The translations under genes were made by a program, and so were the position numbers. Below are positions 753 to 60,226 of a stretch of DNA of 60,226 nucleotides, in pieces. The DNA comes from a virus, in IMG/VR virus record IMGVR_UViG_3300045988_163836. One strand, 5' to 3'. Every line of letters starts with the position of its first letter. Position 1 is the stretch's first letter. The notes below the pieces were generated by a model that saw only the letters and a list, made by a program, of their open reading frames with translations, did no database searches and was not told the DNA's origin.

Positions 753-1174
753 TGAATTATTATATTTTAAACTTCTATACACCAAAAGATGAAATGGTAA
801 AAGAAGTTTTTATAGATAAAGATACCATAACTCAATCATTTATTAATCGTATTCTATTGGATATTGCTGAAAATTTTTTTGGACATAAGTATGATAATTC
901 TGCGGCAATGGTTAATTATTTAGAGCATTGCTATTATACTAAAGAAAAAGTAAATCAAAACAGAAAAAAAGAATACTGGAATATTATCGTTGCCGACTAT
1001 CAAGGTAATACTGAAACAGAAAGTTATCTTGCTACTGAAGATTTTAATGTAGATAAAGCTATTGATCGGCTGAAACATTATTTAGCATTTATTCATAAAC
1101 CATCAGATATGAGTGAGCAAGAGTATGTTGATAAATATTGTTATTTAGTATCGGCAGAAAAAATTGAAAAATAA
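749..1174 (+). CDS. hypothetical protein
   Basis: 141-aa ORF with ATG at 749 overlapping the previous stop (ATGA). Confidence 0.5.
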   Translation: MMNYYILNFYTPKDEMVKEVFIDKDTITQSFINRILLDIAENFFGHKYDNSAAMVNYLEHCYYTKEKVNQNRKKEYWNIIVADYQGNTETESYLATEDFNVDKAIDRLKHYLAFIHKPSDMSEQEYVDKYCYLVSAEKIEK

Positions 1175-1220
1175 AAAATAATATTATATAATATTTATAT
1201 AATAAAGGAGGAAATATTAT

Positions 1221-2378
1221 ATGAGTTATTTATTTACCAGTGAGAGCGTTTTTGCCGGTCACCCTGATAAGGTTTGTGATTAGGTAAGTGATGCTATTCT
1301 GGATTATGTCCTCCAGCTTGACCCTGATGCACGAGTAGCTTGTGAATGTACTATTAGTCCAGGTCTTTTCCACATCATGGGAGAGATTACAGCTAAAACA
1401 GAACAATCTATTCCTTATCAGGAAATTGCAAGAGAGACTTTAAGATTTATTGGTTATGACAATGATGAAGCAGGATTTAACTGCGACACTTGTTCATATA
1501 TTATTAATGTAGTAAATCAATCCCCTGACATCGCTGCGGGTGTCGATAGGGATGGTGCTGGAGATCAAGGCATGATGTTTGGTTATGCAACTAACGAAAC
1601 AGAAAATTATATGCCTATTGCCCAGCAACTTGCTAACAATATCTCGGTCATTATGTTTAGTAAGTATAAAAATGATTTGCTACCTTGGGCATTACCTGAC
1701 GGCAAATGTCAGATAACTGTCCAATACGATGATGATGGCAACTTTGAAGGGGTAGATACAATTGTCGTATCGGCCCAACACAAAGACAAATATAGTATTA
1801 AGGAAATAACACCCGATATTACGAACATTTGTAATATTGCCCTTCAAGGTTATGCCATTAAGAAAGATTGTAAATTTTATATTAACCCAACAGGCAGATT
1901 CGTAATTGGTGGACCTGCGGCTGACATTGGATTAACCGGACGTAAAATCGTCGTAGATACATATGGTGGTTATGCTCCACATGGTGGGGGATGTTTTTCA
2001 GGGAAGTCGCCCTGTAAAGTAGATAGGTCTGGTGCTTATATGGCACGTTATGTAGCTAAAAATCTTGTAGCTTCTGGTGTTTGTGATAAATGTATGATTC
2101 AAGTTGCTTATATTATTGGGCAGACAGAACCTGTATCTATTAATATTAATTGTTTTGGTACAGAAAAGAAACCTATCGCTGAAATTCTTGAAGCAGTTAA
2201 TCAGACATTTGATTTTGCACCGCGTAGTATTATTCATAAATTTGATTTAAAACATACTCGCTATTTACCCTATGCTTGCTTCGGTCATTTTGGTCGTATT
2301 GAATGTAATAGTCCTTGGGAACAGCTTGATAAAGTAGAAGAATTAAAAACAATTTTTGATTTTAAAAAGGAGAACTAA
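1221..2378 (+). CDS. metK: S-adenosylmethionine synthetase (methionine adenosyltransferase), one in-frame TAG
   Basis: The N-terminus [30 protein letters not shown] aligns with E. coli MetK [29 protein letters not shown], with TAG at the Gln position. A GAGDQGMMFGYATNETE motif is present. SD aaaggagg is upstream. Confidence 0.85.
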
Positions 2379-2467
2379 TATGGACCCCGTAATTATTCTT
2401 GTTATTGCTATTGTCGTCCTTGGTGGATTGTATTTCTATAACTATAAGAAAGGAACCAAGTATTAAT

Positions 2468-2701
2468 ATGATTTATTGCCTTGTTCCAAAAGATGAACTA
2501 AAAGATTTGCTCTATGATAGTTTGCGACTTCAAGCATTAGACTGTGGTGGCGTTGACAATTGGGATTGGTATGGTGCATCTATTGGAGATTTTATTGATG
2601 CCGCCAAGGCAGACTATAATGTTTCAGAAGATGATGATGATTTCGACATTAGTGATATGGCTGATGTAGATGTTGAAGGTTACAGAACAATGGAGGAATA
2701 A
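2468..2701 (+). CDS. small acidic protein
   Basis: Short ORF with an Asp/Glu-rich C-terminus; start is inferred. Confidence 0.4.
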   Translation: MIYCLVPKDELKDLLYDSLRLQALDCGGVDNWDWYGASIGDFIDAAKADYNVSEDDDDFDISDMADVDVEGYRTMEE

Positions 2702-2703
2702 TT

Positions 2704-3114
2704 ATGTTATTGTATTTGTTGGCTATTGTTATCGGCGTAATTTGTTTTATCATTGCAAAATGTTTGAGTGATAATTTTAGTGATTGGGCTGCTCTTCCAT
2801 TTACTATTGGCTTTATACTTGCTCTTGTAGTATTATTTAGTACAATTGCTTTTATATGCCACAAAGCAACTGCATCTATTGACCGTGCTAATGTAGAAGC
2901 CGAACGAGATGTTATTGTTTATCAGATAGAACACCATGATAGTTTCCTTGAAACTTCAAGAGTTGGTGTAAATGAATTGTATTATACTCAAGTAAAAGAA
3001 TTCAATGAAAAAGTGCGTATTCATCAGTTCTATAGGAGTAATCCTTGGACAAGTTGGTATGAGCAGCCATTTTGGTCAGAAATTGAATTGATTGATTATA
3101 CAGAGGAGTCTTGA
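2704..3114 (+). CDS. membrane protein (2 TM helices)
   Basis: Hydrophobic N-terminal segments; followed by hairpin terminator 3098-3132. Confidence 0.5.
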   Translation: MLLYLLAIVIGVICFIIAKCLSDNFSDWAALPFTIGFILALVVLFSTIAFICHKATASIDRANVEAERDVIVYQIEHHDSFLETSRVGVNELYYTQVKEFNEKVRIHQFYRSNPWTSWYEQPFWSEIELIDYTEES

Positions 3115-24078: not shown

Positions 24079-24226
24079 GGGGTCGTGGCCAAGCGGTAAG
24101 GCCGGCAACTTATCCAAGATTAGTTTAAATGGTAAAATAGTCTATGCGCAAGAAAGATGTGAGTTCAAACCTAACATTTTGGGCCAAATTGCCAAATCGT
24201 TGGTTCGAATCCAACCGGCCCCACCA
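24079..24226 (+). tRNA. tRNA (Gln-like D-arm) with about 78-nt ORF-less intervening sequence in the anticodon loop
   Basis: Acceptor ggggtcg/cggcccc, D gcc-aagcggtaa-ggc, anticodon stem ggcaa...ttgcc, T gttgg-ttcgaat-ccaac, a-cca. Insert helix ccaagat/attttgg is adjacent to the anticodon stem. Anticodon is ambiguous (UAU, UCA or CCA depending on splice position). Confidence 0.55.
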
Positions 24227-24638: not shown

Positions 24639-24891
24639 ATTGGTCTTATACATGGGGTTTCCGATTTGAACTAGGTAGATTAGTCACCTACCGTTGGCAA
24701 TAGACCAATTAAAAATAAACTGAGGCAAAGGGAAATCGGGTTTTAATATATATAGCTATAAAGAAATTTTATAGTTAGCTATGATGAACTTCATAGTAAA
24801 ATCCTCTTGTAATCAAGCTAATTGGGAGAGGGGTAGCGCGGGAACGGGGAGAAGCGCGCTATAAAAGGTGAAATACTTCTTTCCACCATAT

Positions 24892-24967: not shown

Positions 24968-25575
24968 ATAGTGAAGTAGTAGCTATACTCACTATAATCA
25001 AGGCTCGGTGGTTGGTGGCTCCATCGTTATGTAAATAAGCCATATGTATATTACTTCTTGGTGTAATGGAAGCATGCTGCCTGAAAGAGGCGGAGGTATT
25101 GGTTCAATTCCAATAGAAGGATTAATTAAAGCTGGGAAATAATAGTCGCCCATAACTAATTATTTAATATAGGACTATTATTAAAGGTTATTTAAGTTAA
25201 AGAAATGCGGTTGAAGTTATTACTTACTTGATTATAAAATAACATGACCGCAAGACGAGTTTATAGTGTGCGTCTATAAATGATCTGCCTATATGTTATC
25301 TTTTTATACTTTCTCTTTGGTTGTTTCTTGACATATAAGTAAAAACGGAAAGGGAGTTAAAGGTTCAGCTAAAAAACTGGTTTGTTTTTTGATAAGGTTT
25401 TAAAAATTAGGTGACAAAATCTTATTTGAGTGACGCTGCTCAGGAGGGTCCGGAACCTCTGAAATGCGATATGCGGTTGTAGCTCAGTCGAAAAAAATAA
25501 ATTTGGACGAAGTGAGCTAATTAATTACTTTTATTTCCTAAATATAATAGAATAAAATAGAAAGAAGGTAATTAA

Positions 25576-26139
25576 TTGCCAAAAGCCTTAGATTTAACGA
25601 ATAAAGTATTTGGAAATTTAAAATGTATTTAGAAAGCTCCTACTAGAAATAAAAAGACTTATTGGGAATGTGAATGTTTATTATGCGGAACTCATAAAAT
25701 TATTTAGACTTGTCATTTAACAGATGGTAGAACTACAAGTTGCGGGTAGCATAATGAAAATAATCTTTTTAATATTAGCAAAGAAAAGCAATGCTTAATT
25801 TGTGGAGAAAAGTTTATAACTAATAATCCTAAAAGAAAATATTGTTTTAATTGTTCTCCAGACAATATATCAGCAGCTGACCGATTAAGACATATCAAAA
25901 GAATTATTAAACATAAATTAATAGTATATAAAGGCGGAAAATGTGAAATTTGTGGTTATGATAAATGTGAAGGAGCTTTATAGTTTCATCATTTAAATCC
26001 GCAAGAAAAAGAATTTACAATTTCTCAAGTAAATTTAAATGAAGGTGAATTTTCTTTTGAAAATTTATTAAAAGAAGTTGATAAATGTTAGTTATTATGT
26101 GCTAATTGTCATGCTGAACAACATTATAAAATTGAATGA
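25576..26139 (+). CDS. HNH homing endonuclease (TTG start, 5 in-frame TAG)
   Basis: CxxC...GAL-TAG-FHHLNP...DKC-TAG-LLCANCHAEQH. TAG aligns with Gln of NFQLLCPNCH in the 59479 HNH gene. The stop overlaps the start of tRNA-Lys. Confidence 0.65.
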
Positions 26140-26212: not shown

Positions 26213-26745
26213 GGTCAAGTTTGAGAAATTTCATAAAGCATCGCTGACGTTAAATGGCACTTATATGAAAACGCGTAAGTAATATAAGATAGCAAAATTC
26301 TCGTAGTTCATCCTATTAGAGAATCTTAAAGAGTAATGGCAAGATCATATTGCGGGAGACCGTGCGTATGAGATACCAATAAAGGTAGCACATCTTGTGT
26401 TGAACAAGATAAAAGATGGAAAGGATACCTGCCATGTTTGGACAGCAAAAGAAGGCGTTGAATGTAATCGAAAAACATTCCGTTGGTTCTTAGGGGAGCG
26501 ACGTAACAGTGAAACCCGAGGTTTGAGTTACCTTGTCCAAACGCTATGTATAGTCAAAGTCTAGGCAACAAGGCTTTAATTAGAGTTAAAATTGTTTTAA
26601 TTAAACTCATACTTGTGGAAATCAAGCAGATCCACTTTACTGGGCCTACTGTAAAAGCCAGTTTGATATAGCCTCCATACCCAATGAGGAATTTTTATAA
26701 AAGTCTATTTAATTTTTCTTGGCAGTTTAATTAAGTAGACTATAT
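26213..26745 (+). ncRNA. ORF-free structured block, candidate large ncRNA
   Basis: About 530 nt with no ORF in any frame, locally GC-enriched with many complementary segments, between tRNA-Lys and tRNA-Val. Confidence 0.3.
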
Positions 26746-27302: not shown

Positions 27303-27367
27303 ATAAATTTGAAAATTTAAAAAAAATATTATATAATATATATATAATAATAAAGGAGATATTTGAA

Positions 27368-27863: not shown

Positions 27864-27995
27864 GTCATCTAATATTCACAACCGCCACGAGGTAGATGAT
27901 GGGTAATGCTAATAGTGGATAAAACGAAAATCGGGCAAAGCAAGTTAAACTCCTTAAAGTTTTTATCAAATATAGTAGAAAAGGAGTTGAATTAA

Positions 27996-28957: not shown

Positions 28958-29089
28958 TTATGAAAGACAATACAGCAATTATACATTTGCTTTGGGAGCC
29001 GTGTGTTATAGGTTCGAGTCCTATTGTTTGGTCGAAGACCGAATATAGCGTAATTGGTAGCGCAACGTATAAAATTGTCTTGTTAATAT

Positions 29090-30595: not shown

Positions 30596-30990
30596 ATAGA
30601 GAACCTTTCCGTGGTGATACTATTTAAACTAATCTCTATGAAACTTATTTCCACTTTTTTAAGTTTCTATGGTTAAACCCTGTTGAGGGCAAAGACTACA
30701 GGGTATTCCTTTCCATCCCTCATACATTAAGACTCATTTTCAGCAAACTTTTGCCTGCAAAGGTTCTACATACTTATTTATTACTAATAGATGAAAAAGT
30801 ATAATAAAGAAAATAAAGTATATTTTGAAAAGTTTTTTCTTTTTAGCTAGTTTAGTAAGCTAAATTCCGCGTTTTTATTTTGGCTTTTCAATGAGTCTTG
30901 TTTTTTAAAATAATTGGTATCGCTAAGCTTCATGGTAATTGTGGCGTATTTAAATCATAGATAGTTAAGGGTCTATAGCCAATTATAATA
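30596..30990 (+). ncRNA. ORF-free structured block
   Basis: About 390 nt without ORFs between two tRNAs; contains hairpins. Confidence 0.25.
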
Positions 30991-54708: not shown

Positions 54709-54787
54709 CGCTATCATGTGAAAGCCTTCTCGTGGCGATAGTGTTTTAACTAATTTCACAATTATTTATTAAAGGAGTCATTTAGAT

Positions 54788-55423
54788 ATGGCATACATTT
54801 ATTAGATAATAAATAATATTAATGGAAAAATTTATGTTGGTAAAACAGTAAAAAATAATATTTAGGAACGTTGGAAAGAACATCTTAAAGATTATAAAAA
54901 ACCTAGATGTGAAAAACGTCCTTTATATGACGCAATGAATAAATATGGTTCAGAAAATTTTTCTATTAAAGAGTTAGAGGAATGTCCATTAGAAGAACTT
55001 AATGATAAAGAAGTTTATTGGATTGAAAAATTAGGTTCTTTTAAATATGGATATAACGCTACAATTGGCGGAGATGGCAAACAATATATTGACTATGATT
55101 TAGTATGCGAAACATATAAGAATTTACAATGTATTGTAGATACTGCTAAACAATTAAATATTAGTGAAGATTCAGTTTCTAAAATTTTAAAATTATATAA
55201 AATTGATATTATTCCTAATGCTAAAATAGTTCAAAATAAGTATGGGAAAATAATTAATATGTATGATTTAAATGATAATTATTTAAGGACTTTTCCATCA
55301 ACAACTGAAGCAGCTAAATTTATGGTAGAAAATAAATTAACTAATTGTAAAATGACTACTATAAAACAACATATTTCTGAAGTATGCAAATGTAAACGAA
55401 ATACAGCTGCTAAGTTTAAATGA
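54788..55423 (+). CDS. GIY-YIG homing endonuclease 2 (in-frame TAG)
   Basis: MAYIY-TAG-IINNINGKIYVGKT; paralog of the 29289 gene. A long hairpin lies downstream around 55463-55545. Confidence 0.7.
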
Positions 55424-55629
55424 AAATATGCTTAATTATTATACCATTAGCCAAGATTGGATAGTTAATAAAACCGTTTCTAGTTAATAGATTCTAGATG
55501 GCCGGGACTCAAAACTGCTGGCAATTCTAATCTTGGCTATTTTCTTTTATTTGAAAAAATTAAAAAAATAGTATATAATATATATACAAAATAAAGAAAA
55601 AAATAAATGAGAAAAAGGTGTTAAAAGTT

Positions 55630-55983
55630 ATGGAATATTCTCTGGATAAGTACAAGTATTTTATTCCCACTAAGGCAGATGGTACGCCGTATAAGGTTGT
55701 TGCAGTTTCTACTTATGCTGGTAGGACTGTGCGTGGTGTAGCCAAGTGTGATCCGAAGGATACATTTGATACTGAAAAGGGTAAGCAGCTTGCCGCAGCA
55801 CGTTGCCAGGCGAAGGTCAGTTCTCAGCGTCTGAAGCGTGCTACTAAGAAGCTTGATGAAGCTGCTAAGGCACTTGAGAAGGCACAGAAGTATTATGATG
55901 ATATGACTGTGTATTTCAATGATAGTGCAAGAGATAAGGAAATGTATGATAGCGTAGTTGAAAGACTCGCTAAGGAAATGTAA
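55630..55983 (+). CDS. Lys/Ala-rich small protein, atypically GC-rich
   Basis: Intact ORF with higher GC than the genome; followed by terminator gggtaattaattaccc (55991-56008). Confidence 0.5.
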   Translation: MEYSLDKYKYFIPTKADGTPYKVVAVSTYAGRTVRGVAKCDPKDTFDTEKGKQLAAARCQAKVSSQRLKRATKKLDEAAKALEKAQKYYDDMTVYFNDSARDKEMYDSVVERLAKEM

Positions 55984-56013: not shown

Positions 56014-56569
56014 CCGGGTGTAGTTCAGTTTGGTAGAACGCTTGATTTGGGAAAAGAGATTTTTGTCTAAAAAATATGTTAGATATTACTCAACAGAAAG
56101 GAACTGTAACAGAGTTAAGATGTATTCTTGATTTAACTAATCTTGGATATAGATGTTTAAAATCTGTTGATGAAAGTTCTAAATATGATGTAGTAGCTGA
56201 TATGGGGATGGGTAAATTTATCCGTATTCAATGTAAAACATCTTCTTGGGTTACTGATACAAAAGAACCTAATGTAGCTTTTGCAATTGCTACAAGTTGT
56301 ATTACCACTAATACAAAATCTACTACTCGTCATAAGTATTCAAAAGATGATATTGATTATTTTTATACTTGGTTTGAAGGCCAAGGATATTTAGTTTCCA
56401 TTGAAGAAGCTACTGGTGCAACTTTTAGATGGCGGTATGAATATCCTTCATCTGGTCAAAAACAGGGTATTCATATCGCTAATGATTACAAAATTGAGGA
56501 GGTCTTAAAGACAATCTAAGATTTTCCTGGATCAAGAGGCCGTGAGTTCAAGTCTCGCCACTCGGACCA
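56014..56569 (+). tRNA. tRNA-Pro (UGG) interrupted by about 480-nt ORF-containing intervening sequence
   Basis: 5' exon ccgggtg ta gttc-agtttggtag-aac g cttga tttggg. 3' exon from 56532: tcaag aggcc gtgag-ttcaagt-ctcgc cactcgg a cca. Junction helix tttgggaaaa/ttttcctgga plus ttgtct/agacaa. Confidence 0.7.
56076..56519 (+). CDS. intron-encoded Hjc/PD-(D/E)xK-like nuclease (paralog B)
   Basis: TELRCILDLTNLGYRCLKSV...YDVVADMGMGKFIRIQCK; fills the tRNA-Pro intervening sequence. Confidence 0.65.
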   Translation: MLDITQQKGTVTELRCILDLTNLGYRCLKSVDESSKYDVVADMGMGKFIRIQCKTSSWVTDTKEPNVAFAIATSCITTNTKSTTRHKYSKDDIDYFYTWFEGQGYLVSIEEATGATFRWRYEYPSSGQKQGIHIANDYKIEEVLKTI

Positions 56570-56918
56570 TCAGGGTTCTGTTAAAGATACATAATTGAAA
56601 AGGATTGATCTCCCTAAGTAGATTTGTATTGGAATGAAAAAATGAGGTCTAGATGACACAGATAACCTCCCCTGAACCATCCCTTTTGTTAGTAGGTTGT
56701 CGGGGTTAAATAACTAACAGTAAAGACACACGCAGCAAATATTAGATAAAATCTATGTGTTATTGGTTCAAGTCCAATATTATCTCTGTTAAGATAATTC
56801 ATCCAAAGGGTAGGATAATAGTTAATTTATTTAATGTGTCTTGTAAATTTGAATTTTAAAAAAAAATATTATATAATATATAAGTAATCAATAAGAAATT
56901 ATTAATTACTTATAATTT

Positions 56919-56997: not shown

Positions 56998-57525
56998 AGG
57001 TCAGTACAGTGTAATTGGTATCACCCCTGACTGGTTTGAAGGAGGTTCATTTTGTAGTCAAAAAGTAACAAAGATAAAGGACGTTTTGGATTAGCTATGG
57101 CTATTGCCTATTTCACTGACAAAGGCTATACAGTCTCAACTCCTTTAAATGATACTCAGTGGTATGATTTAATTATAGAACGAAATGGTAAATTTTAGAC
57201 AGTTCAATGTAAATGTACTGGAAGTTAGGATAATGTTATAATGTTAAGATCTTGCGGTGGTACTAAAGGAACTGTTTATGATAATGTTTTAAATCATTCT
57301 GAGCTTGATTTATTATTTTGTATAGATGTTCAAGGTAATATGTATGTAATTCCATTAAAAGAAATTTTAAAATCAGGAAATACAAAATAGATTACTTTAC
57401 GAACAGCTCCAACAAGCAATAATCAAGGCTTTTAGACTTATAAATTTCGAGTTCGATTCTCGTTTCAAACACCATAAATCAGGTGCTTAATGCGGTTGTT
57501 GGTTCAAGTCCAACCTGGCCTACCA
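56998..57525 (+). tRNA. tRNA-Tyr (GUA, type II) interrupted by about 440-nt ORF-containing intervening sequence
   Basis: 5' exon aggtcag ta c agtg-taattggta-tcac c cctga ctg (to 57033). 3' exon from 57475: taaa tcagg + arm tgcttaatgcggtt + gttgg-ttcaagt-ccaac ctggcct a cca. The spliced loop CUGUAAA matches the Tyr consensus. Confidence 0.6.
57052..57477 (+). CDS. intron-encoded Hjc/PD-(D/E)xK-like nuclease (paralog C, TTG start, 6 TAG)
   Basis: KGRFGLAMAIAYFTDKGYTV...YDLIIERNGKF-TAG-TVQCK; SD aaggagg; the TAA stop overlaps the first nt of the 3' exon. Confidence 0.55.
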
Positions 57526-57584
57526 TTTAAAATAAAATTTGAAAATTTAAAAAAAATATTATATAATATATATATAATAAATGA

Positions 57585-58925
57585 ACTTTAAAAATTAAAT
57601 AATAATTTAATTACGGTTATAGTACAACTCAGTGCAGACTTAACACCATAAGGCTGAGAAATCGATCCACTCTGGCGGAGATTGTAGAATGGAATATTCA
57701 AAGGATACTTTGAAATTATTTCTAAATCTTTTGTAGTGATACATTAGATTCACGCATCGAAGGATGCGGCTACGGGGAGATTGTGCTGGGATAATCGCAT
57801 TTAAGGTCCTGTTCTTCTCGCTTCCATAATAGACAGCATTGTTAACAGCAATGCCGAATCCTTGTTAGGGTAAGGCTGGTAACCTTGCCAAACCAAGGAA
57901 ATACCAATAAGGAAGTTGGCAATTGATGTGGCGTAATCTACTATAAGAGAAGGTCAAGGGTCAAGTAGCCGAAATTTGCCAAGACAGTATGATATTAATT
58001 TAGTAAAAATTATTGGTAATACTATTCTGAATGGTCGGTGAAAGATAGAGGTAGTCAGTCCTCTGTGAGATTTGGCTTAGGCCGGGGCAAGAAGTTATGA
58101 AGTCGCTATTCATAGCTCAGACTTGTTTCCTTACTTACCTAATAAAATGAAGATTATTAACCAGTAGGGCGAAGGTCCGTAGTATAATTGTAATTAAGTT
58201 ATTATTTAATAACTTACGATTTCCTTTCCTGTTAAAAATAAATCATTAAATGATTTATTTGAAATGAATTATGTAGATGCTAATATAGGCGGTGGCTTGC
58301 ACATTAACCTCATTGGGTAGCCAATCCCACATCGTTAGAGGCCTCTGCGGAACCTGCTCCTATGGCTGTAGGGTTCTTACATAATCTAATCAAATAAGGT
58401 TGACTCGCCTGTTGTCCGGTGAAATGATATATCTGGAAACCGTACTGATACGTATCAGATATTTGATTAGCGTCCTAATCTTGGTTAATTAGGTAGTGGA
58501 ACAATACGCTAAACCAGCCAGCTCTCCACTATAAATAAGCTGAATAGGGATGTTTGTGGCTCACATACCAAAAAGCCATTACCAAGTGCGGAAATAAGAT
58601 CCTTGGTAGTCTCTCATATAAAGGCGTGGAAAATGAGACGTAATGGACTACGAAAAAGACATATAATAGGTAGAGTTATTATTTATTGTGTTAGATTATA
58701 GAATGAAAATCCTATTATTAAAAACTGTATATTCTACTTCCTATTGGTAGGTATTATAAGTTTAATGGTAGGTCAAAAATTTAATATATTCCAATAGCTA
58801 ATGAATGAGGTAGGCTGAAGTACTTAGTGGCGTGGGCAGGCATAGAGGCGACCTATAAATGGTTAGTGGCTATGGTGTAGTTTATTCCTATTGGATATAT
58901 TAATTTTTGTAAATATATTCTACTG
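57585..58925 (+). ncRNA. large ORF-free structured RNA candidate (GOLLD/ROOL-like by size and context)
   Basis: About 1.3 kb with no ORF of 60 aa or more on either strand, locally GC-enriched and rich in complementary stretches. Preceded by promoter motif 57545-57580 and flanked by tRNAs. Confidence 0.45.
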
Positions 58926-59087
58926 AATAATTTGATTTTAAAAAAATTATTTAGTATAATATATTTACAAGATAAAGAGAAGTTAGGATAATTTCTCTAA
59001 GACAGTTTCAGTAAATTTTTATTAAAGATAATCATATGTTTTTTGGTTCATAAGAAGATACTTTATTAAACTGTCTTGTATATATAT

Positions 59088-59162
59088 TCCGGCTTTGGGT
59101 AACGGTTAGCTCAGCTGACTCTAAATCAGCAAGTCTCAGTTCGACTCTGAGAGCCGGTGCCA
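59088..59162 (+). tRNA. amber suppressor tRNA (anticodon CUA), glutamine-type identity
   Basis: tccggct tt gggt-aacggtta-gctc a gctga-ctctaaa-tcagc aagt ctcag-ttcgact-ctgag agccggt g cca. Loop CUCUAAA; weak 1-72 pair (U-U) and G73, as in tRNA-Gln. Confidence 0.8.
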
Positions 59163-59261
59163 GGCGTAAGGCTCACGCAGCAAATTTACTTTTGAAAGTT
59201 CACCTAAAATGAATTGCTATTTTTCAAAATTGAGTCTTGATTTAATTAATATAGTTTATTT

Positions 59262-60085
59262 GCCGGTGTGGTGGAATGGTAGACACAAGGGACTTTTGAC
59301 TTAGCAAACGTTAAAATGGAGTGCCTAAGAGGAAACTCTTAGAGCAGAAGTTGGCTAAAACGGTGAATGGCTAAGAGAACGCCGTGCTAAGTTTTGGAAC
59401 ACATTCTAAAAAATTGGACGACACTCATTAAAATACCTTTTTTAATTTTTAAGTAATAATGAAAGAGAGGTAATATAAATGAGAACTGATATTTTAGAAC
59501 GCAAAGAAGAAATTGAGCAATGGATTACTGAAGGTAAAACTAAAGCTCAAATGGCAAGAGAATTGGGTTGTAATCCTAAAACAATTAATCCAGTATTAAA
59601 AAAGCTTGGTCTTGAATATGCTGGAAATCAAGGTTGTAAAGGATTGTCAAAACCCAATGGACATGAATTATCTTTGTTAGAATACTTAGAAAAAAGTATT
59701 GATATACAGAGTAATAAAGTAAGAAAAAAACTTCTTGATGAAGGTTATAAAGAGTACAAATGTGAATGTTGTGGATTAACCGAATGGTTAGGAGAACCAA
59801 TTCCTTTAGAACTTCATCATAAAGATGGAAATCATTTTAATAATGAATTAGATAATTTCCAATTATTATGCCCAAATTGTCATGCAAAAACATCTTCTTA
59901 TCGTGGAAAAAATTGTTCCAAATAAATGTGTAGAGAGTATATACCAACTATCTAAGTGCAAGTCGTGCATATGATAAAGACGTATTCCAGACTACAACAC
60001 AAAAATGTGGCTATGGTGACATAGAGTAGTAAGAAAATCCCTCGGTGGCAACACCATGCGGGTTCGAGTCCCGCCACCGGCACCA
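59262..60085 (+). tRNA. tRNA-Leu (UAA, type II) with about 738-nt group-I-like intron carrying an HNH ORF
   Basis: 5' exon gccggtg tg gtg-gaatggtaga-cac a aggga ctt (to 59295). 3' exon from 60034: aaaa tccct + arm cggtggcaacaccat + gcggg-ttcgagt-cccgc caccggc a cca. Insertion lies between 34 and 35, the classic tRNA-Leu(UAA) intron site; about 290 nt of non-coding intron sequence flanks the ORF. Confidence 0.65.
59479..59925 (+). CDS. HNH homing endonuclease (intron-encoded)
   Basis: CxxC...ELHHKDGNHFNNELDNFQLLCPNCH; intact, with no TAG. Confidence 0.75.
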   Translation: MRTDILERKEEIEQWITEGKTKAQMARELGCNPKTINPVLKKLGLEYAGNQGCKGLSKPNGHELSLLEYLEKSIDIQSNKVRKKLLDEGYKEYKCECCGLTEWLGEPIPLELHHKDGNHFNNELDNFQLLCPNCHAKTSSYRGKNCSK

Positions 60086-60226
60086 TTAAACAATAGTAGC
60101 TAACGGCAGTTGAACAGACGGGTCGGGGCTAACATAGAAAGGTTAGCAGGTAGTACGGCGGTAGGTAACAAATCCGCAAGTCGAAATGAGTCGGGAAATC
60201 CGAATGATACGGCTTAGATGTTTTCC

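Follow-up and report, generated by a model that had tools for sequence, protein, structure and literature searches.

A ROOL RNA and a second large structured RNA of an apparently uncurated family in the tRNA island of a TAG-recoded phage

ROOL and GOLLD are among the largest phage and bacterial RNAs without a known function, and cage structures of these RNAs have been solved recently. ROOL is an RNA of ~580 nucleotides (nt) found in phages and prophages near transfer RNA (tRNA) islands (Weinberg 2017, PMC5737381), for which few highly conserved positions have been described (PMC5737381); ROOL env-120 forms a hollow homo-octameric cage in vitro as seen by cryo-electron microscopy, the function of ROOL being unknown (Kretsch 2025, PMC12286853). 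GOLLD is composed of two regions, with tRNAs sometimes found in the linker, and its 3' region is universally conserved (PMC12286853). The locus described here, 57585-59478, is a block without long open reading frames (ORFs) in a phage sequence of 60,226 nt (IMG/VR record IMGVR_UViG_3300045988_163836); the whole of this stretch is referred to as the window and all coordinates are on its plus strand, while loci compared with it are labelled L followed by three digits. With regard to identity and anatomy, the block is very probably a non-coding region that contains a ROOL RNA and a second conserved structured RNA; the family of this second RNA (58256-58910) is provisionally named X.

The initial annotation of the window, made from the sequence alone, described the region as lacking ORFs of 60 amino acids (aa) or more, raised in guanine-cytosine (GC) content, rich in long complementary stretches and preceded by a copy of a conserved promoter, and each of these features is present. 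The longest start-to-stop ORF on either strand of 57585-59478 is 37 aa (30-aa minimum, standard code), and TAG recoding provides no credible ORF either; the GC content of 57585-58925 is 36.3% compared to the window mean of 31.1%, a modest enrichment that 13.5% of equal-sized windows reach. Both of the complementary pairs quoted are real hairpins, one in ROOL and one in the second RNA, and a copy of a 35-nt promoter motif at 57539 lies immediately upstream. Folding of the plus strand is better than that of dinucleotide shuffles (z -2.7 and -3.1); folding of the minus strand is not (z -1.2).

It is scarcely credible that the second half of the region is a hidden recoded protein gene, or a non-functional spacer with structure arising by chance. 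When TAG is read as sense, the plus strand does offer a stop-to-stop frame of 101 codons (58513-58818) and the minus strand one of 121 codons (58310-58675); however, both are broken by indels of 1-2 nt among relatives with 83-99% identity, and every gene of the window is encoded on the plus strand, opposite to the 121-codon frame. The 101-codon frame has no adequate start, as it holds no ATG-started ORF of at least 70 aa under TAG recoding and just one TTG-started ORF of 32 aa under the standard code. A recoded protein gene was rejected after TAG, TGA or TAA as sense gave no credible ORF and the frames proved to be frameshifted among relatives. The alignments of family X are rich in compensatory pair changes and in indels of lengths not divisible by three, and by the conservation of X in more than 50 loci, which excludes a spacer, 58256-58910 is not spacer.

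The first half of the region is, on sequence and model match, a new member of the known family ROOL (57594-58210). Scanning was done with cmscan against Rfam 15, at gathering scores for the window and 10 X loci and at an expectation value (E) of up to 10 for 58150-59480 and L057:3310-3800. The model RF03087 matches 57604-58197 with 323 bits (E 1.4e-73; gathering score 99.1), and the match is untruncated, spanning model positions 1-574 of 574; the RNA is closed by an inverted repeat of 32 nt that is 88% complementary (57594-57625/58179-58210), and the first of the quoted hairpins, ccttgttagggtaagg...ccaaaccaagg, is a helix in the covariance-model alignment. This ROOL is 95-98% conserved in L001 and L002. 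The window contains 14 tRNAs, and tRNA-Gln and tRNA-Tyr are located just 5' of ROOL. The RNA would fold into a ~19-stem architecture as in ROOL env-120, and by homology with env-120 it is expected to self-assemble into a homo-octameric cage.

The initial annotation had offered GOLLD or ROOL, singly or as a pair, or else a new class, and this interpretation is largely borne out; ROOL in the first half and a separate, uncurated family in the second half stand, while GOLLD does not. GOLLD (RF01998) was rejected as a candidate, having no match at gathering score in the window or the 10 X loci and none at E<=10 in 58150-59480 and L057, as was a group II intron, for which the Rfam scans gave no match. 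The single giant RNA of ~1.3 kilobases (kb) that had been suggested is replaced by two tandem RNAs and a short AT-rich hairpin (58236-58260). Four further blocks that were considered similar (24640-24890, 24968-25560, 26213-26745 and 30596-30990) are not copies of ROOL or X and have no significant Rfam family.

At E<=10, Rfam returned for 58150-59480 only tRNA, a 17-bit match to DUF2800 (E 2.8, cut-off 60) and noise. Homologues of the second RNA were collected by sequence comparison. The close relatives L001 (95% identity) and L002 (98%) were recovered through a neighbouring protein, and nhmmer comparison of the stretch with loci carrying ROOL motifs gave a match in L017, a 402-kb phage contig (E 7e-11); blocks common to the window and L017 were then used as search patterns. 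A 19-nt pattern from loop L3, CTGCTCCTATGGCTGNAGG, matches 36 viral stretches, against ~3 chance matches expected for a collection of this size, and a second, gapped pattern occurs in 11; in bacterial assemblies the pattern CTGCTCCTATGGCTGNAGG is found in 25 stretches, of which 11 are true homologues, all on contigs of metagenome-assembled genomes (MAGs), and 14 are chance occurrences in coding-like sequence. A profile of the 5' domain finds X in 52 loci (38 non-identical copies), the hosts being uncultivated phages and MAG contigs. When the window, L065 and L077 are left out of the profile, its sole match in the window is 58260-58492 with 125.8 bits (nhmmer, E 2.7e-38).

X is apparently an uncurated and widespread large RNA family with respect to Rfam 15 and the searchable literature. 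Its absence from curation is explained by its occurrence in metagenomic phages only: blastn with the second half of the window's region and two other X subfamilies found no X in the 50,697 records of GenBank phages. Megablast of 50-60 kb of the window against GenBank phages returned tRNA matches only; a metagenome scan returned 7 contigs with a gap of 15-45 nt that was set too narrow, which gives no basis for abundance. The signature motifs of X, CUGCUCCUAUGGCUG and UGAAAUGAUAUAU, are absent as strings from the searchable literature, the supplements of PMC10690425 lying outside that search, and from the supplementary text files of PMC12286853, the GOLLD env-38 construct included. The 8,495 unnamed candidate RNAs from IMG/VR of Fremin 2023 (PMC10690425) could include fragments of X.

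The 5' domain of X features at least eight helices, at least four pseudoknots and two invariant loops (Table 1); the window holds L3, L5, P1-P6, PK0, PK2 and PK3, all of which can pair, and the second hairpin quoted by the initial annotation, gatacgtatcagatat, is the P6/PK2 pseudoknot hairpin. The helices were evaluated in alignment A3, which comprises 29 sequences of the 5' domain aligned with MAFFT, with counts covering 39 pairs in 8 helices. Paired cells amount to 89.0%, an observed value that 0 of 500 shuffles reach, compared to 73.0% after shuffling and 39-46% when the 3' partners are slid by 1-3 columns; changes on both sides are seen in 30 of the 39 pairs, and the covariation score is 0.438 against 0.171 for the control. 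A cognate test, in which the 5' strand is compared with its own and with others' 3' strands, was added since MAFFT mis-registers some helices; cognate strands pair better for P1, P2, PK1, P3, P4 and P5 (0/5000 permutations each). PK0 is invariant in most members, with compensatory changes in L019 (ACAUAC:GUAUGU), L070/L071 (UAUAGA:UCUAUG) and L048. The invariant G-U pairs at columns 36-96, 39-93 and 111-139 of A3 fix X to the plus strand, since their minus-strand counterparts would be A-C mismatches. From the MAFFT alignment, RNAalifold recovers P2, P3 and one short helix only; the other helices were first drawn up by eye and then checked by the cognate and column counts. These sequence comparisons establish that the 5' domain exists and is conserved, and they establish its strand and secondary structure, its tRNA-island context and the recurrent linkage of X with ROOL. 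The ~265-nt domain folds into a compact multi-pseudoknot core, in which the three-way module enclosed by P1 is followed by P4-P5-P6 and by two hairpins, each with a loop that pairs to its own 5' flank.

Past the 5' domain the members of X differ in length and sequence. Across the variable middle of the window's subfamily, the six relatives (83-99% identity) show indels in loops and compensatory or wobble changes in stems, such as those of 58575-58618. Many X members then present a 3' domain of the form UGAGG...GUGGC-hairpin-ACC...hairpin-AGAGUAG; the window sequence at 58776-58908 has the same order of motifs as L057-type members and is conserved within the subfamily. For the two stacked helices of the 3' domain, 14 sequences give 89% paired cells compared to 79% shuffled and 28-45% slid, with changes on both sides in 5/10 pairs; the cognate test on the 3' hairpin is weak (81/5000), and several segments are mis-anchored. 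A search by nhmmer with the window in the seed finds the 3' domain at E 5e-8, a value that is circular. By its position and its conservation within the subfamily, 58521-58908 is probably part of the X RNA, its 3' part being a putative homologue of the 3' domain of other members.

Table 1. Features of the ROOL-X region of the window.
Feature	Coordinates	Strand	Remarks
Conserved sigma-70-like promoter copy	57539-57573	+	TTGAAA-17-TATAAT, A-rich spacer; heads ROOL-X unit
Full-length ROOL RNA	57594-58210	+	RF03087 match and closing inverted repeat
AT-only 12-bp (base pair) hairpin	58236-58260	+	Inverted repeat, 100% complementary; between ROOL and X
X conserved 5' domain	58256-58520	+	Homologues, covariation, leave-out profile
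P1	58269-75/58378-84	+	Encloses three-way module
Junction GAAUAUAG	UAUAGG at 58284-89	+	UAUAGG pairs in PK0
PK0	58284-89/58359-64	+	UAUAGG with CCUAUG in P3 loop
P2	58289-94/58330-35	+	Variable insert
PK1	58308-11/58338-41	+	P2 insert with P2/P3 junction
P3	58349-54/58372-77	+	Carries L3
L3, invariant 17-nt loop	58355-71	+	Window UGCUCCUAUGGCUGUAG; family UGCUCCUAUGGCUGWAG
P4, long-range	58386-95/58461-70	+	
P5	58415-19/58433-37	+	Carries L5
L5, invariant 13-nt loop	58420-32	+	Window UGAAAUGAUAUAU; family UGAAAYGAUAYAU
PK2	58441-43/58450-52	+	P6 loop with its 5' flank
P6 hairpin	58445-49/58454-58	+	
PK3	58470-73/58506-09	+	Loop of further hairpin with GCGU after P4
X variable middle, window subfamily	58521-58775	+	Hairpin set, e.g. 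58575-58618
Probable X 3' domain	58776-58908	+	22-bp closing helix 58776-58797/58887-58908; UGAGG; GGC-hairpin-ACC...hairpin-GUAG core
27-bp inverted repeat	58907-58970	+	93% complementary; overlaps promoter 58932-58960; end mark of ROOL-X unit
Variant promoter	58932-58960	+	TTGATT-17-TATAAT; between X and tRNA(CUA)
tRNA, anticodon CUA (TAG suppressor)	59088-59162	+	Starts next unit

The 35-nt promoter motif, TTGAAAATTTAAAAAAAATATTATATAATATATAT, is found at 27309, 54567, 56849 and 57539, four near-identical copies in the window where 0 are expected by chance. It is proposed that, in this TAG-recoded phage, the copy at 57539-57573 starts a non-coding transcription unit with two tandem plus-strand RNAs; ROOL (57594-58210) would be transcribed first, followed by X (about 58256-58910), the two being co-transcribed in this lineage. 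The AT-only hairpin between them is absent from L045 and L065 and is conserved in the closest relatives only; it could be a weak terminator, a processing site or functionless.

Several results weigh against this picture of the unit and of X within it. A canonical terminator was not found, and a weak promoter-like site at 58259-58286 (9/12) overlaps the 5' end of X; the co-transcription of ROOL and X and the boundaries of the RNAs are inferred from promoter-like sites alone. R1, a covariance model derived from the 3' domains of other X subfamilies, gives the 3' part of the window's X only 6.4 bits (E 1.2), and the leave-out hidden Markov model (HMM) has no match in this 3' portion; because these independent models miss the 3' portion, the length of ~650 nt for X depends on subfamily conservation and analogy. 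Within the 5' domain, the short helix P4a (AAGG/CCUG) has no covariation signal in the cognate test, and P1 and P7 are only 73-77% paired in the MAFFT alignment. The exact RNA ends, like co-transcription, cage formation and function, are inferred.

The tRNA(CUA) follows X by ~180-210 nt in the window, L002 and L045, and this spacing would agree with a reading of 58211-58925 as a leader or processing scaffold that acts in cis on the suppressor tRNA. Such a role is considered very improbable: a separate promoter (58932-58960) is present between X and tRNA(CUA), other phages have different tRNAs (Leu, Gly and others) or protein-coding genes after X, and the size and pseudoknotted core of X are far beyond those of known tRNA leaders.

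X is always found inside tRNA arrays, and in the window it is on the tRNA strand. A same-strand tRNA is present upstream in 35/38 X copies, within 20 nt in 18/38, and a tRNA is usually found 3' of X, with a median of 6 tRNAs within 3 kb across the 38 copies. Since X is directly flanked by tRNAs in most phages, it is probably released from polycistronic tRNA precursors by tRNA-processing nucleases; judged from this gene order, tRNA-processing enzymes would be the most likely means of release. The lineage of the window has ROOL placed between tRNA-Tyr and X. ROOL is located upstream on the same strand in 16/52 X loci, including the divergent L083, L017, L043, L037 and L082, at a spacing from 50 nt to ~1.1 kb; the spacing in L082 just fits one tRNA. 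The loci L058, L046, L049, L036 and L057 show no ROOL in the 3-10 kb upstream of X that they cover, and their X copies begin 4-40 nt after the 3' end of a tRNA.

The recurrence of the same-strand order ROOL then X in divergent phages, together with the lack of a strong promoter or terminator between the two in the window, would be explained if ROOL and X were two domains of one composite, GOLLD-like bipartite RNA, for which GOLLD, with two regions and occasional linker tRNAs, is a precedent (PMC12286853). This arrangement is nevertheless unlikely, as most X copies have no ROOL in the 3-10 kb upstream covered by the locus, most ROOL loci show no X, and ROOL alone forms closed cages in vitro (PMC12286853). 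In L019 the order is furthermore reversed (X, tRNAs, ROOL), with a promoter-like TTGACA-17-TATAAT, identified by eye, before ROOL. Two tandem RNAs are thus preferred for the window, and the linkage of ROOL and X may stem from common descent of a syntenic island, from a functional tie between the two RNAs, or from both.

Other elements were observed in these islands. The region 850-2900 (minus strand) of L019, a 64-kb phage, contains a divergent compact X of ~330 nt, an isolated second 3' domain, several tRNAs and ROOL within 2 kb. A protein of ~117 aa adjoins X and tRNAs in the window (55630-55983), L017 (5750-5400, minus) and L048 (~10770-10540, minus); it has a borderline Rv2632c-like match (24.5 bits against 25) and the conserved pattern YAG..V.G.AKC...D.FD.E.G..LA.ARC. 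The tRNA island of L017 also contains, at 2050-2137 (minus), a partial match to OLE RNA with 53.4 bits (gathering score 50, model positions 437-594).

A tentative role for X is that of a stable trans-acting RNA particle whose target in the infected cell is the tRNA or translation machinery, either alone or with ROOL. Such a particle might serve a tRNA-recognising factor as scaffold or decoy, or it might be a ribozyme; invariant unpaired nucleotides and pseudoknots are as dense in X as is typical for ribozymes and for RNAs that bind specific ligands or proteins, and the occurrence of an X module within a tRNA frame suggests recognition by a tRNA-handling factor. The broader proposal, which is judged about evenly balanced between right and wrong, is that the tRNA islands of uncultivated phages, most of them large, carry in X a third and undescribed class in addition to GOLLD and ROOL; its near-invariant loops and tRNA-transplantable module would point to catalysis or to binding of the tRNA machinery, unlike a purely architectural cage, and X may be the partner or cargo of ROOL.

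The tRNA-framed modules are found in five small phages as cloverleaves of ~115-120 nt (L039 6526-6650, L041 402-516, L051, L055 and L063), in which the X module takes the place of the anticodon arm; the module consists of AAUAUAG, a hairpin and P3 with the loop UGCUCCUAUGGCUGAAG. These phages have no tRNA arrays, and in L039 the element is located within the replication module and is followed by an ORF of 100 aa.

The tRNA-Leu(UAA) gene of the window (59262-60085) is split between U34 and A35 by a 738-nt insertion (59296-60033) that ends in G; the position is the classical cyanobacterial group I intron site. The insertion has an HNH ORF (59479-59925), the L058 gene (8530-8932) has an ORF-less version of 316 nt, and the gene is intact in L045 and L077. 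Rfam Intron_gpI detects neither the window nor the L058 insertion at E<=10, and blastn of the L058 insertion gives a weak match to Lak phage only.

A derivation of X from group I introns, either as a ribozyme core outside a gene or as a mobile intron in tRNA precursor spacers, is improbable. It would account for the best match of R1 in the window, 60006-60035 (UGUGGCUAUG...CAUAGAGUAG; 11.7 bits, E 0.12), which falls at the 3' end of the tRNA-Leu insertion, and for the blocks that the ORF-less insertion of L058 shares with X by eye, namely CGGYGAAA, CCGUGCUAA, CCCUACC..RCGUUAA and GUUGGC-hairpin-AGAGUAG; homing-endonuclease genes are also abundant in the island. However, X profile HMMs give no alignment to the tRNA-Leu insertions, X has no Intron_gpI match at E<=10 and lies between complete tRNAs in no gene, and an internal guide sequence, an exon pairing and a 3'-terminal G were looked for in X with none identified; the tRNA-Leu insertion is itself just a candidate group I intron. 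The link between X and group I introns is a weak lead, and an independent RNA family is favoured.

The coverage of the window by long ORFs increases from 43% to 72% when TAG is read as sense, and late genes contain up to 12 in-frame TAGs whereas early genes contain few or none. By these counts the phage is one that reads TAG as sense, and it encodes the suppressor tRNA(CUA) behind a separate promoter right after the ROOL-X unit.

Relative to the 98%-identical L002, the island has four endonuclease insertions, three of them in split tRNAs and one with a GIY-YIG gene. The tRNA-Tyr(GUA) gene (56999-57525) is split after G34 by a 441-nt insertion (57034-57474), and L001, L002 and L017 have the gene unsplit; nearly all of this insertion is a PD-(D/E)XK endonuclease ORF (PF11645, I-Ssp6803I-type) with in-frame TAGs, leaving no space for a ribozyme core, and has no Rfam intron match. 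Together the two ends of the insertion imitate the upper half of a tRNA, with GUUUGAA (57034-40) paired to UUCAAAC (57464-70), a T-arm-like hairpin (57447-62) and, after these, ACCA (57471-74). The tRNA-Pro(UGG) gene (56015-56569) is split at 37/38 by an insertion of ~479 nt (56052-56530) and is intact in L002 (11585-11661); this insertion contains a second PF11645 PD-(D/E)XK ORF (56076-56519) and just ~25 + 10 nt of non-coding sequence. The fourth insertion (54710-55444) lies directly after tRNA-Thr, carries a homing-endonuclease ORF with GIY-YIG and NUMOD1 (54788-55423) and is absent from L002.

Further RNA elements occur in the window. A RAGATH-33 RNA is found at 60099-60211, after exon 2 of tRNA-Leu, with 139 bits (gathering score 120). 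The first tRNA island has sub-threshold Rfam matches at 27864-27931 and 29000-29070, to an HDV-like ribozyme of the F. prausnitzii type (E 0.005; 32 bits against 44) and to a YrlA-like element (E 0.019); a 145-nt match to the tRNA model (24079-24223) suggests another interrupted tRNA. Non-coding tRNA-island blocks at 25938-26126, 26213-26340 and 56570-56890 are conserved in the distant loci L033, L043, L056, L084, L089 and L037 (nhmmer E 1e-6 to 1e-12) and may be further unclassified RNAs.

A third large RNA class in the niche of ROOL and GOLLD would provide a comparative handle on the role of tRNA-island RNAs. X is helpful in this respect as its conservation is well above that of ROOL, its pseudoknotted core is defined and its module is also grafted into tRNA-like bodies; the recurrent adjacency of ROOL and X could make the function of ROOL testable. 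ORF-free blocks in tRNA islands are a productive place to scan for RNAs: the first half of this one is an ordinary ROOL, while the second half belongs to an apparently uncurated, widespread family that merits comparative and biochemical study.

Structures that mimic tRNA include the tRNA-like domain of YrlA and viral tRNA-like structure (TLS) elements. X resembles these mimics in that L039, L041, L051, L055 and L063 carry its first module in a cloverleaf with acceptor stem, D arm and T arm; however, the X of the window has no acceptor, D or T arms, the module there being closed by P1, and ARAGORN calls no tRNA in the chimeras, the Rfam tRNA model giving L041 just 34 bits. In its density of pseudoknots and its invariant single-stranded stretches X is ribozyme-like and similar to group I introns, and its 3' end, GUGGC-hairpin-AGAGUAG, briefly resembles the 3' end of the window's tRNA-Leu(UAA) insertion; X differs from these introns in that it interrupts no gene and sits between complete tRNA genes. 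Intron_gpI (RF00028) has no match to X at E<=10, a model that also misses the probable tRNA-Leu(UAA) introns and may be insensitive. X is comparable to GOLLD as a large ornate RNA of phages or prophages, located beside or among tRNAs, with a two-region layout that includes a variable part; however, X conserves its 5' region whereas GOLLD conserves its 3' region, and X is shorter at ~330-650 nt. With ROOL, X shares the genomic niche and the size class (~600 nt, many stems, pseudoknots), and the two adjoin in several lineages; X nevertheless has no match to the ROOL model at E<=10 (58150-59480 and the compact member L057 of ~450 nt), and it displays far more invariant nucleotides than ROOL, including the two loops of 17 and 13 nt that are conserved in all members.

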